The position numbers and the translations under genes were made by a program. Shown here in pieces: positions 19,596-54,980 of a stretch of DNA of 64,000 bases. Under the pieces are notes generated by a model. The model was not told the origin of the DNA. It saw nothing but the letters and a program-made list of their open reading frames with translations, and searched no databases. Positions within the stretch are counted from its first letter, which is position 1; each line of letters starts with the position of its first letter. The stretch spans positions 84,651-148,650 of the forward strand of contig JASFHL010000001.1 of the NCBI GenBank assembly GCA_050123235.1. Direction: 5' to 3'. This stretch comes from Candidatus Woesebacteria bacterium. Lineage in GTDB: Bacteria > Patescibacteriota > Microgenomatia > UBA1400 > PJMF01.

Positions 19596-21065
19596 TTAAT
19601 CCTTATGCAACTCCAAAAAACCTACACTGTTAGCTGGCATATTGACATGGGTTTTTAGCACTGCTGCACTAGTAGCTAGTTTTTGAACATTATTAACTCC
19701 GCCAATCATCTGGATAGAAAGTGTGTAACTACCTGGGTTGATATTATAAAAAGTAATTGGCACAAATTCAGCGTGCTGACCTTTTTTGTCAAAGTTGGCA
19801 ATTACTAATTGAGTATTATTATTTTTATCTTTAGCAGCTAAAGCTTTAACCCAAGACCCATTGCCAGTAATTTGCAATCTTTGATCAGCAATGCGATCTA
19901 GCATCTTTAGAGCTTGGTAGCGTGGTTTAGCTTTAGAAGCAAAGTCTCGATGAGTAAACATTCCCCAACGCCCCCAATATTCCTGACCTTCTGCGCCTTT
20001 CCCATCTTGAATTTCAAACACAAATGCTTTTTGAATACTGTCAAGCATGACAATTAGTCCAGCTACAGTATGAGCTGCTGCATAATTATTATCATAGCCA
20101 GGATCAATTTCACTATTATGACCCCATTCAGTAATATGAAATTCTAAAGATGGTTCTAATTTAGGATATTTCAAGATCCAATTTTTCACATTACCCATAT
20201 CTTTGACATACTGATCAAGATCATTGCTATATCTATGCCAAGAAAAGAAATCATAACGTAAGTTGTTTTTAACAGCATGTTTCGCCATGGCGTCAAACCA
20301 GTTTTTGTATAAAGCAGTGATGGCTGGGCCACCAATTTTAAATGGTTTTACACCTTGAGCGTTATTAGCTCCTCTCACAGCATAGGTATAAAGGTCAAGG
20401 TAGTTTTTATCACCATAATATTTCCAACTGCCAAATAGATCCGGTTCATTCCAGACTTCATAATAGACATTGTCAATTTGTTTAGTTCCAGAAACATGTT
20501 CAATAGTTTTCTGAATTGTTAATTGCCAATCAGCCCAATTAACTGGTTTAGAAACAATATCTCCGCTGGCAATAGCAGGAGGCATGTAGCTAAGAGCAAT
20601 ATAGGGTTTGGCTCCAGTAGCCAAAATGTCATCCAAGATAAGGTTAAACTTTGAAAAATCAAATTGAAGATTACCCGGGCTACCCTTGACAATATCATAG
20701 AAGTCATAAATATGATCGATGCGAATATATTGGGGATTAAGGCTTTTAACTTGGCTCGATATTGGTTCTATTCGCCAGTCATGATCTTCACCACCTTGAG
20801 CTAGATAACGCCAAGGTCTAGGTATGGAGCCAATCACTCCCTGGGTATCAACTAGTAAATTAGCCGGCACACCAAGTGCTTTACCAAGGAACTCTCTTAC
20901 TATTTTAAGTTGAGAAACTCCAATTAAAATTACAACTGTGAATATTAAAAGAAAAAATCCAGCAAAAATAGTTTTTATTTTTTGTTTGGAGTGTCTTTTT
21001 TTTCTTAGCATGATGAATGATTTATTTAAATTATAGCAAGAATTAGATACTTTTTTTGTTCTCAA
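19596..21065 (-). CDS. membrane-anchored glycoside hydrolase, clan GH-A (GH5/GH39-like)
   Basis: N-terminal signal anchor; YEVWNEPD (NEP acid/base motif) and ITEWGHN (nucleophile Glu) typical of (beta/alpha)8 GH-A enzymes; C-terminal beta-sandwich. Confidence 0.6.
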   Translation of the reverse strand: MRTKKVSNSCYNLNKSFIMLRKKRHSKQKIKTIFAGFFLLIFTVVILIGVSQLKIVREFLGKALGVPANLLVDTQGVIGSIPRPWRYLAQGGEDHDWRIEPISSQVKSLNPQYIRIDHIYDFYDIVKGSPGNLQFDFSKFNLILDDILATGAKPYIALSYMPPAIASGDIVSKPVNWADWQLTIQKTIEHVSGTKQIDNVYYEVWNEPDLFGSWKYYGDKNYLDLYTYAVRGANNAQGVKPFKIGGPAITALYKNWFDAMAKHAVKNNLRYDFFSWHRYSNDLDQYVKDMGNVKNWILKYPKLEPSLEFHITEWGHNSEIDPGYDNNYAAAHTVAGLIVMLDSIQKAFVFEIQDGKGAEGQEYWGRWGMFTHRDFASKAKPRYQALKMLDRIADQRLQITGNGSWVKALAAKDKNNNTQLVIANFDKKGQHAEFVPITFYNINPGSYTLSIQMIGGVNNVQKLATSAAVLKTHVNMPANSVGFLELHKD

Positions 21066-21165: not shown

Positions 21166-21735
21166 ATGAAAAAAAACAACGGCCACAAAATCATCCTTGA
21201 TCTAGATAAAGAGAAATCCAAGGTCAGTAAGCTTAAAAAGATTGGCAAGAAAATTGTCTTAACTCAAGGTTCTTTTGACATGGTGCATATAGGTCATGCT
21301 CGCTACTTTGAGGCGGCTAAAAAACAGGGAGATGTTCTGATCGTGGGGGTTGATGATGATGAAAAAATCAGGCATCGTAAAGGTCCAGATAGGCCAGTAG
21401 TACCTCAAGAAGAAAGACTAGAGATGTTAACTTATCTCAGTTCAGTTGACGTGATAGTTTTGAAAAAATTTAATTATCCTAGATGGCATTTAATTAGAAT
21501 TATTAAGCCAGATGTGTTGGTAGCGACAAGAGAGACATATAGTGATGAAGAGCTAGAGCAACTAAAAGAATATTGTGGCAGAGTGTTGGTATTGGCGCCT
21601 ATGGCCACTACTTCGACTAGCGCTAAAATCAGACGAGTACAGATTGGAACAGCCAGAAGAATTGAGTCAACTTTAAAAACCAAGCTAATTGGAGCGATGG
21701 AAGATGTGCTTAAAGAGCTTAAAGATAATGTTTAA
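21166..21735 (+). CDS. cytidylyltransferase-like nucleotidyltransferase (RfaE domain II/TagD-like)
   Basis: GSFDMVHIGHARY (HxGH) motif, about 130-aa Rossmann-like core. Confidence 0.6.
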   Translation: MKKNNGHKIILDLDKEKSKVSKLKKIGKKIVLTQGSFDMVHIGHARYFEAAKKQGDVLIVGVDDDEKIRHRKGPDRPVVPQEERLEMLTYLSSVDVIVLKKFNYPRWHLIRIIKPDVLVATRETYSDEELEQLKEYCGRVLVLAPMATTSTSAKIRRVQIGTARRIESTLKTKLIGAMEDVLKELKDNV

Positions 21736-21742
21736 TAGTTTT

Positions 21743-21988
21743 TATTGATGCATATTTTTTTAGAGTTATTGAGATGCTTAGAACAATTAATATCTATAAA
21801 TCTGGAGCGTTGAAGCGAGGCCTGGTTAGGCTTGAGTTAGCAATCAATATATTACCGAGCTTCACCTAGTGAGCCTTGTATCTTATAAAAAAAATATAAT
21901 AGCGAGCGTGTCCAAGATTTATAGATATTAATGTTCTAAACACTAGATTTTTTTAAAACAGACTATTAAGATATCTTATGCATCAATA
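21743..21988. repeat. about 246-bp imperfect-palindromic intergenic element, copy A (core GGAGCGTTGAAGCGAGGCCTGG ... TACCGAGCTTCACCTAGTGAGCC)
   Basis: Terminal inverted repeats of about 65 bp (ttattgatgcat...gcttagaacaattaatatctataaatctgga at left, its reverse complement at right); core shared with copies at 29351-29554 and 47045-47175. Confidence 0.6.
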
Positions 21989-21995
21989 ATCAACT

Positions 21996-22925
21996 ATGAA
22001 ACAAATCATAATCGCCTATATTCCAGTTCTACATGAAGGATATCGTCAATTTTTTTCAAAATATCCTCAGGTAAAAAAAGTTTTTCTTTTGGGTCGAGAT
22101 TTTATAAAAGACTTTCCTCAATTATACAAAGATATTCGAGCCCTAGAGCCAAATTTAATCAAAAAAGCTCTAGCAAGTTGGCAGATTTTTGATGAGATTG
22201 AAATAATTGATAAAAAACTTTTAAAAGCCGGGAAAGTTTTTTCGCCCACAAAAGATCGCAGTCAAGCAAGAATCGAGTTGATCATGCCCAACGAGGAGAT
22301 CATGCAGACTTTGGCTAAAAAATATTTCAAAAACTATAAAGTGACTTTTGATGCAATCTTTTTGCGTTGGGATAAGCATCAAGTAGCCAAAAAACGAGCA
22401 GTAAAAGCAGATGCTTTGATTTCTGAGAGGAACTTTGATCGAAAAATGATGAATCTGGCTTTTGAAGAAGCAAACAAAAGTTCTGATTGCTGGCGTCATG
22501 TGGGAGCAGTGATTATCAAGGATGGCAAAGTATTGCTCAGTGCCCACAATCGTCATCTACCCTCAGCTCAACAGCCCTACATTGACGGTGATCCTCGTGA
22601 TAATTTTCATAAAGGAGTTAAGCTGGAATTATCAACTTCTTTACATGCAGAAGCTGGCTTGATTGCTAAAGCTGCCAAGAGAGGCCTTAAATTAGTGGGA
22701 GCGGAGATTTATGTCAGTACTTTTCCTTGTCCGGTCTGTGCTAAACAGATTGCTGCTGCTGGTTTTAAAAAACTTTATTATGCTGAAGGCTATGGTGTTC
22801 TAGATGGCGAGCGAGTTTTGAAAAGCCAAGGAGTTGAAATAGTGCAGGTCAGAGCAGACGATGATTTTGAAAGCACAAAAAGAGGTGAGAGCAAATATAG
22901 TACGGTGAAGAAGTATCGGAAGTAA
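21996..22925 (+). CDS. dCMP/cytidine deaminase domain protein with about 150-aa N-terminal domain of unknown function
   Basis: C-terminal HAEAGLIAKA ... PCPVCAKQI (H-A-E ... PCxxC zinc-dependent deaminase signature); N-terminal half has no recognisable motif. Confidence 0.75.
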   Translation: MKQIIIAYIPVLHEGYRQFFSKYPQVKKVFLLGRDFIKDFPQLYKDIRALEPNLIKKALASWQIFDEIEIIDKKLLKAGKVFSPTKDRSQARIELIMPNEEIMQTLAKKYFKNYKVTFDAIFLRWDKHQVAKKRAVKADALISERNFDRKMMNLAFEEANKSSDCWRHVGAVIIKDGKVLLSAHNRHLPSAQQPYIDGDPRDNFHKGVKLELSTSLHAEAGLIAKAAKRGLKLVGAEIYVSTFPCPVCAKQIAAAGFKKLYYAEGYGVLDGERVLKSQGVEIVQVRADDDFESTKRGESKYSTVKKYRK

Positions 22926-28813: not shown

Positions 28814-28899
28814 TTGATAATTACGTAAATAAAACCCATTGCTCAACCTTTATTTTTCTGTTAAATTAGGTTTTAATGAGATACAGCTCGTATCAAACT

Positions 28900-28941
28900 G
28901 ACCGATGGTAGGTTTCATCTGAAACCAAAGTCGGTTTTTTT
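28900..28941 (+). terminator. intrinsic terminator after recR
   Basis: Nested hairpin GACCGA..GGTTTC-atct-GAAACC..TCGGT followed by T7. Confidence 0.5.
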
Positions 28942-28975
28942 AATTGACCTCTTGAAGAGGGAAGAAAGGAATCTC

Positions 28976-29314
28976 ATGAGAATTTTAGTACAAGGTAAAG
29001 ACTTGGCAGTTACTAAAGCTTTGCGTAATTTTACTAAGGATCAAGTAAATCGTAAACTTTCAAAAATTTCTCAGAGAATTAATCAAGTTAGAGTTTATTT
29101 CGAGCATATTTCCAGAAAGAATGGTGATCCCAAAAGGGCAGTTGTTAGATATAAGGTAGAATTGCCAGGTAAAGATATAGTGGTAAAAAGTAGAGCTAAG
29201 AATCTTTATCAAGCAATTGTAACTGCTACTGATACTATGGTTAGGAAGGTAAGGAAAAATAAGGAAAAAAGAATGGCGAAAACTAGATTGCCTGTTGAGA
29301 TGGAGGGGCAGTAA
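28976..29314 (+). CDS. hpf: ribosome hibernation promoting factor / RaiA family
   Basis: MRILVQGKDLAVTKALRNFTKDQ parallels HPF MNIQITGRNIEITPAIRDYVEEK; about 112 aa; RBS AAAGGA before ATG at 28976 (ORF track TTG start at 28952). Confidence 0.7.
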   Translation: MRILVQGKDLAVTKALRNFTKDQVNRKLSKISQRINQVRVYFEHISRKNGDPKRAVVRYKVELPGKDIVVKSRAKNLYQAIVTATDTMVRKVRKNKEKRMAKTRLPVEMEGQ

Positions 29315-29350
29315 ACTAGAACAACAATTTTATAATTTACTAATAAGTTA

Positions 29351-29554
29351 ATACTAGAGTCGTTCACTACAGTATTTTTTTATTTTTTAAAATACGAGGC
29401 TCACTCGGTGAAGCTCGGTAGTAAATCTACTGCCAAATCGATCCTAGCCAGACCTCGCTTCAACGCTCCAATATTTATCTGTAGTAAAATTCTGGACACT
29501 TGCTCCAAGTTTCATATAAAAAAAGAGTTGATTATTGTTAACTGACTCTAGTAT
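29351..29554. repeat. palindromic intergenic element copy B (inverted relative to copy A)
   Basis: Reverse complement contains GGAGCGTTGAAGCGAGGTCTGG ... TACCGAGCTTCACCGAGTGAGCC (near-identical to copy A cores); ends ATACTAGAGTCGTTCAC / GTTAACTGACTCTAGTAT form imperfect TIR. Confidence 0.55.
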
Positions 29555-29563
29555 GCTAATAGC

Positions 29564-30001
29564 ATGACTGATGACCAACAAAATACCGCTACAGATCCTG
29601 GGGCTGCTAAGAGAAGTCCTTTAGATGCATTAGAAGATTTATTAAAAGATGCACAAAAAAACAAAGGTGCTGTTGGAGCAGCTCCTAGTTTAGCTGCATT
29701 AGGTGGAGCGACCCCCGATGCTGTTGGATTTGAAAAAGGTAGTGAAGAGGAGGAAACTGACAGCCGCTCAAGTGAAGAACAACTGGCAGAAGTTGCTAAA
29801 TTGGAAGAACAGAAAAAACAGGAAGATCAAGTTAGGATAGCAGAGGGGCTTAAAGATCTTCAATACGAAGCCACTCAATCTCCACAGGCTCAAGCTAGAA
29901 TTTCCCAGGATCAAGAAAAAAAAGTTAAGGATGAGCAAAAGGCTAGTGAAAGAGAAGAATATAAAATTAGACAAATCGAGCATACAAAAATTCAGGAATA
30001 A
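29564..30001 (+). CDS. hypothetical low-complexity E/K/Q-rich protein
   Basis: ORF; predicted disordered, coiled-coil-like. Confidence 0.3.
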   Translation: MTDDQQNTATDPGAAKRSPLDALEDLLKDAQKNKGAVGAAPSLAALGGATPDAVGFEKGSEEEETDSRSSEEQLAEVAKLEEQKKQEDQVRIAEGLKDLQYEATQSPQAQARISQDQEKKVKDEQKASEREEYKIRQIEHTKIQE

Positions 30002-30720: not shown

Positions 30721-32337
30721 ATGAAACTTTACAACACTCTCACTCGTAGAATCCAGAAAGTCAAGGCAGCGTGCCCTCCTCGAATGCGGGTTTATGCTTG
30801 CGGTCCCACGGTTTATGATTATGCCCATCTTGGCCATTTGCGCAAATACACTATGGATGATGTTTTAATCAGGACTCTTAAGCATGCTGGATATAAAGTC
30901 AAGCATGTACAAAATATTACTGATGTAGGACATTTGGAATCTGATGCTGATACTGGTCAAGATAAACTAGAAAAAGGAGCAAAGAAATACAAGCAAACAG
31001 TTTGGGAATTAGCAAAAAAGTTTGAGAAATCTTTCTTCAAATCAATGGATTTGATGGGTAATTTACGCCCAGATTTTAGCTGTCGAGCTACTGATCATAT
31101 CCCAGAACAGATTTTTTTAGTAAAAAAATTGGAGGAAAAAGGTTTTACTTATATTATCAAGGGGGATGGTGTCTATTTTGATACTAGTAAATTTAAAGAT
31201 TATGGCAAATTAGCTCGCCTCGATCCTAAGAAAGTCAAGGAAGGTGCTAGAGTAGCTAAAGTTAAGGGTAAGAAAAATCCCACGGATTTTGCTTTATGGA
31301 AGTTTGAACGACCTGGAGAAAATAGAGCCATGGTTTGGGAAAGTCCCTGGAATAAACGGGGTTTTCCTGGTTGGCATATTGAATGTAGTGCCATGAGCAT
31401 GAAATATCTAGGCACCAAGTTTGAAATCCACACGGGTGGGATTGACCATATTCCTATTCATCACACTAATGAAATTGCTCAATCAGAAGCAGCCACAGGT
31501 AAAACCCCCTTTGTTAAATATTGGGTACATCATAACTTTCTTTTAGTAGATGGTGAAAAAATGAGTAAATCTTTGGGAAATTTTTATACCATTGATGATA
31601 TTTTGAAAAAAGGTTTTTCTCCTCAAGCATTGAGACTATTATTTTTAGGAACGCACTATCGAAGTGAACAGAATTTCACTTGGGACAGTCTCAAAGCTGC
31701 TGAAAAAAGTTGGCAGCGTCTGAAGACAAAGGTGCTTGAACTAAAAAAAGGAGATGCCACTAAAGAATTGGCAAAACCGGTAAGTAGTGGTGGTGAAGAG
31801 GAATTTTTCTATCCTTGCATGGCTTGTCCTAAGTTTGCTCATTGTGGAAAAGTCCAAGGTAGCAGTGACATTGGTTCAACTACTGCTCAGAGGGGGAAAT
31901 CAGATCCTAGAGTTAATTCTGAGCCGGCCGCTTCTGCCAAAAAATTACAAAAATATAAGCAAGAATTCTTTACTTTGATGCAAGATGATTTAAAAACTCC
32001 TGAAGCAGTGGCAGCAATGTGGGAACTACTTAAGTCTGAAGAATTGCCTAGTAATGATAAATATAATTTATTGCTTGAATTTGATCAAGTTTTGGGTTTG
32101 GGTTTAGCAAATATTGAAGCAGAAGGCAGTGATCAAAAGGACTTGGCCGAAAAAGACATCCCAGCTAAAATTAAAAAATTAATTAAACAAAGAGAAACTG
32201 CTAGAAAGAAAAAAGATTGGCAGAGAGCAGATGAGTTGAGAGCTGAAATTGAGAGAGAAGGCTATGAGTTGCTAGATAAGGCTGGAGGGGACTATAAACT
32301 AATTAGAGGGGAGAGTTCAGATCATAAACCTTGGTAG
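30721..32337 (+). CDS. cysS: cysteinyl-tRNA synthetase (with insertion containing extra Cys cluster)
   Basis: Class I motifs: CGPTVYDYAHLGH (HIGH) and KMSKSLGN (KMSKS); zinc-ligand Cys residues; about 100-aa insertion with CMACPKFAHCG. Confidence 0.9.
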   Translation: MKLYNTLTRRIQKVKAACPPRMRVYACGPTVYDYAHLGHLRKYTMDDVLIRTLKHAGYKVKHVQNITDVGHLESDADTGQDKLEKGAKKYKQTVWELAKKFEKSFFKSMDLMGNLRPDFSCRATDHIPEQIFLVKKLEEKGFTYIIKGDGVYFDTSKFKDYGKLARLDPKKVKEGARVAKVKGKKNPTDFALWKFERPGENRAMVWESPWNKRGFPGWHIECSAMSMKYLGTKFEIHTGGIDHIPIHHTNEIAQSEAATGKTPFVKYWVHHNFLLVDGEKMSKSLGNFYTIDDILKKGFSPQALRLLFLGTHYRSEQNFTWDSLKAAEKSWQRLKTKVLELKKGDATKELAKPVSSGGEEEFFYPCMACPKFAHCGKVQGSSDIGSTTAQRGKSDPRVNSEPAASAKKLQKYKQEFFTLMQDDLKTPEAVAAMWELLKSEELPSNDKYNLLLEFDQVLGLGLANIEAEGSDQKDLAEKDIPAKIKKLIKQRETARKKKDWQRADELRAEIEREGYELLDKAGGDYKLIRGESSDHKPW

Positions 32338-32379
32338 CTAGATTTTTAAAAGGTTAATTATTTTTTATTAGTTAATCTC

Positions 32380-33063
32380 CTAAATAATTCCTGCCTCCCT
32401 AAACGAAAAATAATTTTTTTCAGTAACAATTAAATGATCTAGAAAGCTAATACCTAGCAACTCGGCGGCTTTGCTTAATCTTTTAGTGACCAGTAAATCA
32501 TCTTCACTCGGGCTGCAATCACCAGAAGGGTGGTTGTGGGCCAAAACCACATAAGCACTAGGTAAAGTGATAGCAGGTAAAAATACATCCCTTGCTTCTA
32601 GCAAATTGTAATTTAGTCCACCTACTGCTACGGTTTGTTTATGAATTAGTTCCTGACGTGCATTGATATACAAAGCAAGAGCGTGTTCTTGCTTCTTATT
32701 TTTAATTTCTCCTAATAATTGAAAGATTTTAGTGGGGCTATTTACTCTTGATAACACTGATCCTTGAGAAATTCTTTTTCCTAACTCAACACTGGCTAAT
32801 ATTTTGGATGCCAATGCCGGGCCAATACCGTGGATACTAGTTAGTTTTTTCATATTCAACTGAGAAAAAAATCTCAAAGGAAATTTTTTAATTAGCTTTT
32901 TAGCTAGGCCGATTACAGAATATTTTTTATTACCAGTGCTTAAAATAATGGCCAAGAGTTCGATATCAGTTAGATTAGCTACTCCTAAATTTTTTAATCT
33001 TTCCCTGGGCCTCTTAAATTCAGGCAAACTTTTTATAAAGTTTTTATTTAGACCCTTAGTCAT
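32380..33063 (-). CDS. radC: RadC-like JAB domain protein (UPF0758)
   Basis: HhH N-terminus and JAMM motif HNHPSG...S..D. Confidence 0.85.
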   Translation of the reverse strand: MTKGLNKNFIKSLPEFKRPRERLKNLGVANLTDIELLAIILSTGNKKYSVIGLAKKLIKKFPLRFFSQLNMKKLTSIHGIGPALASKILASVELGKRISQGSVLSRVNSPTKIFQLLGEIKNKKQEHALALYINARQELIHKQTVAVGGLNYNLLEARDVFLPAITLPSAYVVLAHNHPSGDCSPSEDDLLVTKRLSKAAELLGISFLDHLIVTEKNYFSFREAGII

Positions 33064-36862: not shown

Positions 36863-37135
36863 ATGTATCAAACTGTAAGCATTCAACAAACTAGAGACAA
36901 TTTAGCTGAAATAATCAACAAAGTAGCTATTGCTGGAGAAAGATTTGTGGTGACTAAATTTGGCAAAGTGAAAGCGATGATTGTGCCCATTACTGAACAA
37001 AAGCCCATTTCTGACAAAAAAAGAAAGGCTATCTTAGATGAAGTAACTGGTATTTGGCAGAATAGAAAAGATATGAAAGACAGTGATAAATGGTTATCTA
37101 ATCTCAGAAGACCAAGATATGAAATATCTAGTTGA
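36863..37135 (+). CDS. type II antitoxin, Phd/YefM family
   Basis: about 90 aa, N-terminus QTRDNLAEIINKVAIAGERFVVTKFGKVKAMIVPI typical of Phd/YefM; overlaps downstream PIN gene. Confidence 0.6.
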   Translation: MYQTVSIQQTRDNLAEIINKVAIAGERFVVTKFGKVKAMIVPITEQKPISDKKRKAILDEVTGIWQNRKDMKDSDKWLSNLRRPRYEISS

Positions 37136-37490
37136 TACTAGTCTGTTAATTAATCTTTTACGCTCCTCAAAAAAGGAAATTGTTTTTTTTGAAAGAGAAA
37201 AAGATCTTTATTTATCATATGTTGTAGTTGGTGAGTTACTACAAGGTGTACGTAATAAAAAAGAGTTAAGGAAAATAAAAAAATTGACAAAGCTATTTAC
37301 TATTCTCTGGGGTTCAACAAGCCTAGAAAAAAGAGCATTAAAATTAATTGAAAGACACTTTTTAACTCATGGTATTGGTTTTTTCGATGCTTTAATTGCT
37401 GCTACTGCCCTGGAATATAATTTAACTTTAATTACTCATAACAAAAAGCATTTTCGATTTATCAAAGGTTTGCAACTTGCTGCAGTATAA
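37119..37490 (+). CDS. vapC: type II toxin VapC (PIN domain ribonuclease)
   Basis: MKYLVDTSLLI (first acidic residue D), FFDALIAATALEYNLTLITHNKKHF (conserved D and TxN) ; start overlaps antitoxin by 17 nt. Confidence 0.75.
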   Translation: MKYLVDTSLLINLLRSSKKEIVFFEREKDLYLSYVVVGELLQGVRNKKELRKIKKLTKLFTILWGSTSLEKRALKLIERHFLTHGIGFFDALIAATALEYNLTLITHNKKHFRFIKGLQLAAV

Positions 37491-46023: not shown

Positions 46024-47031
46024 TCACTCTCCTTGTTTCTCCAATTCAGCTCTAAGAGTAGCAACTACCTCCTCCAAGTCTCCCTCTAAAATTGTTTCAA
46101 GTTTGTACCAGCTCTTATTGATTCGATGATCAGTGACTCTATTTTGAGGGAAGTTATAAGTTCGAATTTTTTCTGCTCGCATATTACGGCCGATCCCACT
46201 TCTAGCTTGACCGATTTCTTTCATCTTTTTTTCTTCTTCAATTTCCCATAGTTGTGATCTAAGCAGCTCTAGAGCAATTAAGCGGTTTTGAGCTTGTTTA
46301 CGTTCTTGGCGGGCTACTACTACAATGCCAGTTGGGTTATGAGTAAGGCGCACAGCACTGCTAGTTTTATTGACTGATTGACCACCAGCGCCGCTAGATC
46401 GCATAAATTGCCAATCAAGATCTTCATCTTTGATAGTGATGGCTGTGGATGGGACTTCTGGTAAAACTGCTACCGAAGCAGTTGAAGTATGAATTCTACC
46501 TTGAGATTCCGTCACGGGGATGCGTTGTACTCGGTGGACACCAGTTTCATATTTAAACAATTCAAAAGGATAGATAATTTCTTGACCATTTGTCATCGAA
46601 TTAGAATTTATAGCTAGGTCAGAATTTTCTTCTGAAGATTTTTTTTCAACAGTTTTAATTTCTGTTTTGCCACTGACTTTAATTACTAGATCATCAATAT
46701 AGCTTACATTTAAACCTTTGCTTTCACAAAATCTTAAATACATGCGCAACAAGTCATTAGCCCAAATCTTAGCTTCATCGCCACCAGCTCCGGCTCTAAT
46801 TTCAATAATAGCTTTAGATTTGCTGGTTTGGTGAGTCCCTGGGCCAGCACTAGTTGATTCTCCAAACTCTGCAGCAGCTTGCTCTAGACTTTGTTTTTGA
46901 ATTTTTAACTGATTAATTTCTTCTTGAGCTAAAGCACTAAACTCAGGATCAGCTAATAATTTTTCTGATTCTTTTATTTTGTTTTCAATTTCATCTATTT
47001 GAGCTTGATAAGGATTTTTTATTTGAGACAT
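46024..47031 (-). CDS. prfA: peptide chain release factor 1 (with about 35-aa insertion)
   Basis: GGQ motif SGAGGQSVNKTSSAVRLTH and PVT (PxT, RF1-specific) motif; likely start ATG at 47031 (ORF track GTG at 47058). Confidence 0.9.
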   Translation of the reverse strand: MSQIKNPYQAQIDEIENKIKESEKLLADPEFSALAQEEINQLKIQKQSLEQAAAEFGESTSAGPGTHQTSKSKAIIEIRAGAGGDEAKIWANDLLRMYLRFCESKGLNVSYIDDLVIKVSGKTEIKTVEKKSSEENSDLAINSNSMTNGQEIIYPFELFKYETGVHRVQRIPVTESQGRIHTSTASVAVLPEVPSTAITIKDEDLDWQFMRSSGAGGQSVNKTSSAVRLTHNPTGIVVVARQERKQAQNRLIALELLRSQLWEIEEEKKMKEIGQARSGIGRNMRAEKIRTYNFPQNRVTDHRINKSWYKLETILEGDLEEVVATLRAELEKQGE

Positions 47032-47044
47032 AATTTGCTTTATT

Positions 47045-47175
47045 GATAATTTTACCACTACTACGGATAAACATTGGAGCGTTGAAATGAGGTTTGGAAA
47101 GATCAGAGGTAGATACTTTACTCACTTACTATTGATATAAAATAAAAACCTGGAGGCGAAGTCTTAAAAATTTAG
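47045..47175. repeat. degenerate copy C of the palindromic intergenic element family
   Basis: CTACGGATAAACATTGGAGCGTTGAAATGAGGTTTGG closely matches CTACAGATAAATATTGGAGCGTTGAAGCGAGGTCTGG of copy B (rc); second partial core CTGGAGGCGAAG. Confidence 0.4.
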
Positions 47176-47183
47176 AGTAATCT

Positions 47184-47537
47184 TTATTTTTTATCCTCTG
47201 TACTCTTTGTTTTATTAGCAGCCTTGACTGCTTGTTTTTGTTCTCTGAGAATTTCTTGATAAGATTTTGAATCGTCTTCTTGTTTTTTAGCTTTCTTTTT
47301 CTTTTTAGCTTGAGCATCTGATTGTTTTTTTGTTTGAGCTATTTTCATTTTTTTCATAAATTTATCAACTCGACCTTGTCTATCAACAAATTTCATTTCT
47401 CCAGTAAAGAACGGATGACAGTTACTACAAATATCAACATGTATTGATTTGAGACTCGAACCAGTAGTAAACTGATTACCACAGGTACAAGTAACAACAC
47501 AATCGTCGTGCCAACTAGGATGTAAGTTTTGTTTCAT
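47184..47537 (-). CDS. rpmE: 50S ribosomal protein L31 with lysine-rich C-terminal extension
   Basis: MKQNLHPSWHDDCVVTCTCGNQF...CSNCHPFFTG (L31 C4 zinc ribbon + HPFYTG motif); about 45-aa K/A/Q-rich tail. Confidence 0.8.
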   Translation of the reverse strand: MKQNLHPSWHDDCVVTCTCGNQFTTGSSLKSIHVDICSNCHPFFTGEMKFVDRQGRVDKFMKKMKIAQTKKQSDAQAKKKKKAKKQEDDSKSYQEILREQKQAVKAANKTKSTEDKK

Positions 47538-51209: not shown

Positions 51210-51276
51210 GGGGGCGTGTTGGTCAGTAATGGATCCGTCAAATCTAATTACAGGGGTTCGAATCCCCTCGCCTCCA
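51210..51276 (+). ncRNA. tRNA-like element lacking a D arm (possible tRNA pseudogene or tRNA-mimic ncRNA); anticodon-position triplet GUC
   Basis: 7-bp acceptor stem GGGGGCG/CGCCUCC, canonical T arm AGGGG-UUCGAAU-CCCCU, 9-bp extended anticodon-like stem with 7-nt loop CCGUCAA, followed by ACA and T7; antisense to flanking his genes. Confidence 0.4.
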
Positions 51277-51370
51277 CATTTTTTTGCTGTTGATTTTGCT
51301 TTAATTATTTGTTAAATTATTTTTAATTGACGGATCTATTACTGCAAGATTTAAAACTCCTGTAGTTAGA

Positions 51371-54227: not shown

Positions 54228-54980
54228 TCATAAGAGTAGTTCCCATAAGGTTTCTATATTAATAATTTGAATATTCCCTAGTTTTTTTTCTCCTATATAA
54301 ATACAAGGCATTTGTGCTCTTTTAGCAGCTTCAACATCACTAGAACTATCACCAATATAGATTGTATTTTTGAGAGCTAATTTTTCAGATACCATCAACA
54401 ATGGCTCTGGCTCTGGTTTTCCGTTTTTATAATCTTCCATAGCAATAACAGTATTAAACAAATCAAGGATATTGTTATTTTTTAAGGCATAAATGGCTTC
54501 AAACTTTGGTCTGCCAGTAGCGATTCCCATTTTTTTATATTTCTTTTTAAGATTATCAAGAACTGATTTTGGAATTAACAATTTTTCTGTGTTAATTAGG
54601 CTCTCTATTTTTTTAACAGGAGCTTTTTTGCTATAACATTTTTGATATAAACTTGAACCTAGATAATAACTTTGGAATACAGCAACTATATTTTGGTATA
54701 GTTTGTCCTTGCGATACTTTTCTAAATTACTAATAAACTCTGGTATATCAAATTTTGAATTTTGTTTTTTTAAAATCAAAGCATAACTAGCATCCCAATC
54801 GTTATTTAAACCCACAACTTGTTTGATTGCTAAGACATCTAACTCTGTCACTGTTTTATCAGGACAAAAGTATTGGACAGTTTTTAAGATACAAAGACGA
54901 TATGACTTACTAACATCAATCAGTACACCATCCATGTCCCAGATTAATCCATCTAGTTGGTCAAAGTTAATTTTCTGCAT
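54228..54980 (-). CDS. HAD-IA family hydrolase (candidate histidinol-phosphatase)
   Basis: Motif I DMDGVL, motif IV GDSSSD; embedded in his operon between hisC and hisHF. Confidence 0.55.
   Translation of the reverse strand: MQKINFDQLDGLIWDMDGVLIDVSKSYRLCILKTVQYFCPDKTVTELDVLAIKQVVGLNNDWDASYALILKKQNSKFDIPEFISNLEKYRKDKLYQNIVAVFQSYYLGSSLYQKCYSKKAPVKKIESLINTEKLLIPKSVLDNLKKKYKKMGIATGRPKFEAIYALKNNNILDLFNTVIAMEDYKNGKPEPEPLLMVSEKLALKNTIYIGDSSSDVEAAKRAQMPCIYIGEKKLGNIQIINIETLWELLL

Follow-up and report, generated by a model that had tools for sequence, protein, structure and literature searches.

The spacer of 260 nt in front of the dCMP deaminase gene is best explained as one member, here termed copy A, of a lineage-restricted family of palindromic ('foldback') intergenic repeats of about 190-270 bp, which so far occurs only in two related Candidatus Woesebacteria (CPR/Patescibacteria) genomes. 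The family is genuine and new, and it belongs to an already familiar class, with the balance tipping slightly towards mobile or recombining DNA of the MITE, ERIC, or RPE kind. Full copies consist of imperfect inverted-repeat arms of about 60-75 nt that close onto an asymmetric core of about 110 nt, and this core comprises two helices (P1 and P2), a variable apical region, the 16-nt motif ACCGAGUGAGCYUYGU, and an A/U-rich tract, the latter two being on the 3' side and outside both helices.

Copy A and its fold

Copy A was found in the window, by which we mean the whole 64-kb stretch of DNA that was analyzed, and it occupies the spacer 21736-21995 between a cytidylyltransferase-like gene (21166-21735) and the dCMP deaminase gene (21996-22925), as assigned with Pfam. 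The preliminary description had regarded the entire gap as a single element, and the near-complete palindrome listed in Table 1 agrees with this view. It had also ascribed terminal inverted repeats of about 65 bp to the element. In a gapped alignment that begins 2 nt behind the stop codon of the upstream gene and reaches up to the last base in front of the ATG of the downstream gene, the left arm and the reverse complement of the right arm indeed match with 57 Watson-Crick positions out of about 66, but the middle 20-36 nt or so of the two arms have no complementarity to each other. Perfect pairing is found in the outer arms of 13 nt and in an 18-nt repeat (21786-21803/21915-21932, 100%), which together with a further inverted repeat (21775-21785/21932-21942) belongs to the inner arms of 29 nt.

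The long imperfect hairpin that had been proposed for a transcript was recovered in the calculated RNA fold of copy A, which has a minimum free energy (MFE) of -78.1 kcal/mol in comparison to a mean of -47.2 for shuffled sequences (z = -6.98; none of 200 dinucleotide shuffles folded as well). The MFE of the opposite strand was -71.2.

Table 1. Positions of the repeat copies in the window and of the parts of copy A.
Feature	Position	Strand	Remarks
Copy A, full-length element	21737-21995	+	Fills the whole spacer; covariance-model match 21776-21938, 152 bits
A, outer left arm TTATTGATGCATA	21742-21754	+	Pairs with 21977-21989; 13 nt, 100%
A, inner left arm TGCTTAGAACAATTAATATCTATAAATCT	21775-21803	+	Homology with inner arms in L019c and L029c
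A, helix P1, 5' strand GGAGCGTT	21804-21811	+	Within core 1; P1 paired in 92.5% of cells, 2 pairs changed on both sides
A, helix P2, 5' strand GAAGCGAGGC	21812-21821	+	P2 has 4 pairs changed on both sides
A, apical region of P2	21822-21853	+	Sequence differs from copy to copy
A, helix P2, 3' strand ACCGAGCTTC	21854-21863	+	Within core 2
A, conserved motif ACCTAGTGAGCCTTGT	21864-21879	+	3' side, outside P1 and P2; consensus ACCGAGTGAGCYTYGT
A, A/T-rich tract with A8	21880-21901	+	Equivalent tract in all copies
A, helix P1, 3' strand AGCGTGTCC	21905-21913	+	Inside the conserved block GCGAGCGTGTC (21902-21912)
A, inner right arm	21915-21942	+	Inverted repeats with the inner left arm
A, outer right arm TATGCATCAATAA	21977-21989	+	Inverted-repeat partner of 21742-21754
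Copy B	29331-29498	-	Full core 29379-29470, short arms unlike those of A; 150 bits
Mini element beside B, AAACTTGGAGCAAGTGTCCAGAATTT	29487-29514	-	Arm ends and P1, no core
Copy C, degenerate	47047-47188	+	Core 1, P1, and part of P2 kept; 87 bits

Copies in two genomes and their empty sites

The core sequences recur in the window, in agreement with the preliminary description, which had noted one further copy in opposite orientation (B) and a degenerate one (C). The 22-mer of core 1 matched at 21804, at 29448 on the minus strand, and with three mismatches at 47076, and core 2 matched at 21853 and at 29398 on the minus strand, where no match to either was expected in 64 kb. Copies A and B can be aligned over 92 nt at 83% identity in inverted orientation. 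Using nhmmer and a covariance model, we detected exactly three copies (A, B, and C) in the window; weak covariance-model matches at 32304-32385 and 54244-54369 lie in coding sequence and hence are not copies. A fourth copy (D) begins about 3.2 kb past the end of the window, where it is seen at the end of the Logan contig L018, which gives at least four copies in about 67 kb of this genome. Logan contigs L004 (ending at window position 29472, in B) and L018 (with its start at about window coordinate 67204, in D), both of the same organism, stop inside the cores of the elements. The repeat may thus break short-read assemblies of the window genome, and it is a likely cause of assembly breaks in metagenome-assembled genomes (MAGs) of CPR bacteria.

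Copy B lies between hpf (28952-29314) and a 145-aa gene (29564-30001). Its arms (29351-29361/29544-29554 and 29363-29372/29479-29488) and its flanking inverted repeats ATACTAGAGTC/GACTCTAGTAT and TTCACTACAG/CTGTAGTAAA have another sequence than those of A, and the arms of C and D differ from those of A as well. The right-hand 45 nt or so at this site (29522-29563) are native flank, which is conserved at the empty site of a relative (segment L029, see below), and the outer repeat of copy B is in part made of native flank. On the 5' side of B, a mini element corresponds to the stem ends of A without the core; TGGAGCAAGTGTCC was found there once (29494-29507, minus strand), where 0.02 matches were expected.

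The spacer between recR and hpf is conserved in three Woesebacteria (window 28814-28951; L029:10613-10795; L031:789-944). It contains TTCTGTTAAA..TTAATGAGATAC-loop-GTATC, followed by a G+C hairpin and T7 just before hpf, and resembles a leader or attenuator, conserved in front of the hibernation factor gene. No Rfam family matched this spacer at the gathering threshold.

Copy C is situated between rpmE and prfA in antisense to both genes, and it has neither the conserved 3' motif nor the long hairpin. Together with the mini copies, it shows that the element decays to core-less or degenerate derivatives. The mechanically predicted prfA reading frame starts with GTG at 47058 (minus strand), and the true start is likely the ATG at 47031 (MSQIKNPYQ...), with which the rpmE-prfA spacer would have about 150 nt. 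A strong promoter-like site (47023-47050, plus strand, TTGAGA-16-GATAAT, 10/12) overlaps this prfA start on the opposite strand and points into C on the strand that we term element-plus; there is no equivalent at A or B.

Judging by the flanking proteins, the window comes from a MAG that NCBI names Candidatus Woesebacteria. The nearest homologue of the deaminase is only 57% identical and is encoded on a 747-kb JGI contig of a related Woesebacteria genome, of which about 53 kb of non-overlapping sequence were covered (segments L019, L025, and L029). This sequence contains three homologous copies, two of them at the sites of A and C. The copy L019c (L019:9784-10000) resides at the site of A with an inverted core and collinear flanking genes, and its minus strand carries CGTTGAAG, CTTCAC, and GCGAGCGTGTC in this order. 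The copy L029c (L029:20169-20434) lies between divergent genes and has arms of about 72 nt (MFE -84.5, z = -10.4). In the rpmE-prfA spacer, which is the site of C, there is a core-less mini copy (L025:9915-9980) that is oriented like C with respect to the genes and contains a 17-nt arm segment identical to one in L019c. The element is therefore kept at two orthologous sites despite identities of only 68% (RF-1) and 57% (deaminase) of the respective proteins. Our sample of the family thus consists of two genomes with seven copies.

Empty sites in relatives, the search for which had been suggested in the preliminary description, were found for A and B. The spacer between the CTP-transferase and deaminase genes has 260 nt in the window and 217 nt in L019, in comparison to 15, 12, and -4 nt in the more distant relatives L020, L022, and L024, in which the flanking genes are adjacent and the site of A is empty. 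The site of B is empty in L029, where a 53-nt spacer separates the orthologous flanking genes (45% identity of the downstream genes) and the last 45 nt in front of the ATG have been conserved in both the window and L029. Two further relatives with about 65% identical RF-1 (L026 and L028) have short rpmE-prfA spacers and no copy in the 20 kb analyzed of each. As relatives have empty sites with adjacent flanking genes, the element is an insertion of DNA that some lineages have and others lack. Target-site duplications, which had likewise been proposed as a check, gave no convincing case: the ends of A have no direct repeat, the ATAA found on either side of L019c carries little weight in AT-rich DNA, and a TA duplication could not be distinguished from an extension of the inverted repeat, so that only a palindromic TA is arguable.

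The cores are more similar within a genome (A and B 78%, L019c and L029c 75%) than at the same site (A and L019c 55%), and the copies thus cluster by genome and not by site, which implies that the copies undergo gene conversion among themselves or that the same spacers were hit by insertions more than once. The opposite core orientation at the site of A would fit either an independent insertion or an inversion by recombination between the arms. With respect to the arms, only the inner 25-30 nt or so are recognizably alike among A, L019c, and L029c (62-77%, as compared to 46-54% for B versus these), and the outer arms are specific to each copy, without recognizable sharing. Terminal inverted repeats of about 65 nt can therefore not be upheld as common termini of the family.

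A search for further members in the scanned public genome, metagenome, and viral collections yielded none. An exact-pattern scan gave three matches in genome contigs, all in high-GC taxa and due to chance, as confirmed by nhmmer, no match in metagenome contigs, and no real match in viral contigs; BLAST against phages gave no match to the element. These large collections without additional members are what could be said in favor of a chance similarity or a local segmental duplication instead of a family. We regard this explanation as practically out of the question, given the zero expected core matches, the distances of 7.5, 17.6, and about 20 kb between copies in unrelated contexts, and the homologous copies in a second genome, all of which support the dispersed repeat family that had been postulated. 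The 8-mer CGTTGAAG, considered as a potential DNA-uptake sequence, is not over-represented, with three sites in 64 kb, and was therefore rejected as an uptake signal.

Core helices and the putative folding strand

The internal asymmetric core, and not the ends, is the best-conserved part of the element. In an alignment of five sequences (A6: A, B, C, L019c, and L029c), helix P1 is formed by GGAGCGUU and AGCG(U)GUCC. Helix P2 is formed by GAAGCGAGG and CCGAGCUUC in the window copies, by GAAGAUAAGY and RCUUAUCUUC in the relative, and in part by GAAAUGAGG and CUCACUU in copy C; in L019c, an 11-nt perfect inverted repeat is found at this position. P1 and P2 were paired in 86.7% of the alignment cells, as opposed to 36-44% when the 3' partners were slid by one to three columns. 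Six pairs had changed on both sides, and none of 500 shuffles reached the observed covariation score. Both helices are therefore maintained by compensatory changes, and the partial complementarity between core 1 and core 2 (GCUUCA/UGAAGC) that had been pointed out previously is real and corresponds to the covarying helix P2. Where the relative has Watson-Crick pairs in P2, the window copies have tandem G.A/A.G.

The two strands are not equivalent in their pairing. The element-plus strand has 18 G-U wobbles and the minus strand 8 (core 7 versus 2, counted by hand; arms 11 versus 6), and for each of the four full copies the fold of the plus strand is more stable by 3.5-16 kcal/mol. Both findings hint, with moderate weight, at folding of the plus strand, be it as RNA or as single-stranded DNA. 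This strand is antisense to the co-directional flanking genes in B, C, D, and L019c, and only in A is it the sense strand.

In L029c, 28 nt of the outer 5' arm recur as a direct copy, with about 82% identity, in the apical region of P2 (L029:20170-20199 versus 20187-20214). A 'guide-like' apical loop that copies the own arms was considered for the family and rejected, as the effect was significant in L029c only (p < 0.001 by shuffling) and not in A, B, or L019c.

Nature of the element

According to the reading that we prefer, the element would be a non-autonomous mobile or recombining repeat of the MITE/ERIC/RPE type that is spread and homogenized by a factor acting in trans, with the conserved core hairpin as the part that this factor recognizes. 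Wherever it is transcribed, the element would form a very stable hairpin, preferentially on the element-plus strand, and the core inversion at the site of A relative to L019c could have arisen by recombination of the arms or by independent insertion. The preliminary description had considered a MITE. The dispersed, small, non-coding copies and the filled and empty sites agree with this, but the ends are not conserved in all copies and convincing target-site duplications are missing. Conservation of an internal core and not of the termini is atypical of transposase-driven MITEs and a point against mobile DNA, as is the absence of an autonomous partner from the 64 kb of the window genome and about 53 kb of that of the relative. 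A Pfam scan of the approximately 39 open reading frames of the window detected no transposase, in line with what had been stated before, and also no integrase, reverse transcriptase, or autonomous element with matching ends. The retention at two orthologous sites and the covariation of the helices also count against this reading in that they would equally fit a selected RNA function.

An RNA function is the foremost, if unlikely, alternative: the copies could be genes of structured non-coding RNAs, or cis-acting RNA modules that process, stabilize, or insulate the neighboring mRNAs. The arms would then be a closing stem that evolves by compensation, the core would be the functional RNA, and the DNA-repeat character would be secondary. 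Several observations fit this, namely the conservation of the core above the ends, the covariation of P1 and P2, the tandem G.A/A.G in the window P2 in place of the Watson-Crick pairs of the relative, the excess of wobbles on the better-folding plus strand, and outer arms that stay palindromic although they are no longer alike between copies. If the core were a functional RNA, selection would be the reason why the same intergenic sites are kept at 57-68% protein identity. However, the element region had no Rfam match even at E <= 10 beyond five unrelated families, the best of which (E = 0.47) was far under threshold, there is no consistent promoter or terminator, the favored strand is antisense to co-directional flanking genes in four of five copies, and the loss of the structure in C and the mini copies had no apparent consequence. 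Furthermore, the covariation derives from just five sequences of two genomes, and homogenization of a palindrome at the DNA level could produce the same pattern. The structured RNA family that had been offered as an option thus gains two covarying helices and a preferred folding strand, and it is lacking an Rfam match and consistent transcription signals. That the core represents a new functional CPR RNA, be it a trans-acting sRNA or an RNA with a role in the spread of the element or in the processing of neighboring mRNAs, appears rather improbable to us; if true, it would be among the few lineage-specific structured RNAs known in the CPR radiation. As regards signals, intrinsic terminators (short G+C-rich hairpin with T run) are absent from A and B, and the single site near C is outside the element. 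6S RNA came to mind in view of the long hairpin with a conserved core and was dismissed, as no Rfam family other than tRNA reached the gathering score in the window; the three tRNA matches at this threshold are all outside the element region.

The inverted core at the site of A, with flanking genes that are collinear between the window and L019 and with 29-nt and 13-nt inverted repeats that bracket the segment, could also be taken to indicate an invertible DNA segment, in which the arms serve as recombination sites and flipping of the core switches the downstream gene, here that of dCMP deaminase. We consider such an inverton very improbable, as the orientation differs between species and not within a population, with L004, a second assembly of the window organism, being oriented as the window. 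The window has no invertase or recombinase gene, the A segment has no internal promoter-like site, and the remaining copies are located between functionally unrelated genes.

There is still less reason to assume a gene for a small protein, perhaps for a type I toxin with an mRNA whose two ends pair with each other, even if A and B have open reading frames of 31 aa (21774-21869) and 35 aa (29401-29508, minus strand) that both encode GALKRGL...LPSFT, only one of the 12 differences between the A and B cores is at codon position 2 (counted by hand) with conservative amino-acid changes, and copy D has an in-frame ATG. The frame is lost in L019c and L029c, where the sequence past ...LK is unrelated, and copy C is interrupted by an in-frame TGA. 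None of the reading frames was predicted by a gene caller, there is no obvious ribosome-binding site, a search of 1.84 billion representative proteins gave no homologue, scans of translated viral and metagenome sequences confirmed nothing, and helix P2 accounts for the same alignment columns. A reading frame on the opposite strand (RPRFNAP) was rejected because of many second-position changes and a length of just 7 aa in L029c. The element encodes nothing, and no open reading frame is conserved across the copies and relatives. The small-protein, inverton, and chance explanations are largely excluded.

Returning to mobile or recombining DNA, the question is which of the known systems the element resembles. 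MITEs are short repeated elements in which terminal inverted repeats enclose a core; they have target duplications, no transposase, and the potential to form stem-loops, and they are often co-transcribed, with effects on mRNA stability. For ERIC, Correia, and RPE elements, sizes of about 127 bp, 104-157 bp, and 105-146 bp, respectively, are given in the same source (PMC3184786). The closest similarity is to these latter elements, that is, ERIC/IRU of Enterobacteriaceae, RPE of Rickettsia, and Correia of Neisseria. All are imperfect palindromes in the range of 100-270 bp that are intergenic and probably transcribed, that occur in either orientation without a coding function or a linked transposase, that have internally deleted variants and long RNA hairpins, and of which some copies are at orthologous sites and others are present or absent between relatives. 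At the descriptive level, the Woesebacteria element shows the imperfect palindrome, intergenic location, either orientation, and internally deleted variants of this class. In contrast to its members, however, it resides in a CPR bacterium and is longer than ERIC, its arms are largely copy-specific and can span a whole spacer, the conserved part is an asymmetric core that has undergone compensatory changes, a duplication of TA or of any other sequence is not demonstrable, and sequence similarity is neither expected nor seen.

With classical bacterial MITEs, which are non-autonomous derivatives of insertion sequences, the element shares the small size, multiple non-coding copies, inverted-repeat ends, insertion polymorphism, and stem-loop, whereas its terminal repeats are not conserved in all copies, no target-site duplication was demonstrated, and the sequence covered contains no parent insertion sequence with matching ends. 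REPINs are doublets of REP sequences that form hairpins and are mobilized by RAYT transposases (PMC3116915). Both consist of inverted doublets that form hairpins, both persist in a lineage for long times, and in both the copies evolve within the genome, but REP units have only 20-40 bp, hundreds of copies, and a single-copy RAYT gene, whereas the unit described here, with its 190-270 bp, has a large asymmetric core in place of two equal REP halves, and no RAYT-like (Y1-transposase-like) open reading frame is present in the window. The REP/BIME assignment that had also been suggested does therefore not apply.

We found no description of such a repeat family in CPR bacteria in the literature. 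Genomes of CPR/Patescibacteria are tiny and tightly packed, and non-coding insertions of 250 bp between normally contiguous genes are an unexpected ballast. The family is a marker of genome dynamics (insertion, inversion, and gene conversion) in organisms that cannot be cultured, and it is a candidate for the post-transcriptional uncoupling of genes in operons.

Some further features of the window were observed outside the repeats. A 67-nt tRNA-like sequence (51210-51276, plus strand) has apparently intact acceptor and T arms and scored 36 bits with the Rfam tRNA model, without a call by ARAGORN; about 70 nt further downstream, a segment (51318-51344) has 81% complementarity to 27 nt of this sequence (51224-51250). 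Adjoining tgt, at 36863-37490 on the plus strand, there is a pair of a Phd/YefM antitoxin and a PIN-domain toxin, and PIN toxin pairs also occur in the relative, though elsewhere in the sequence.
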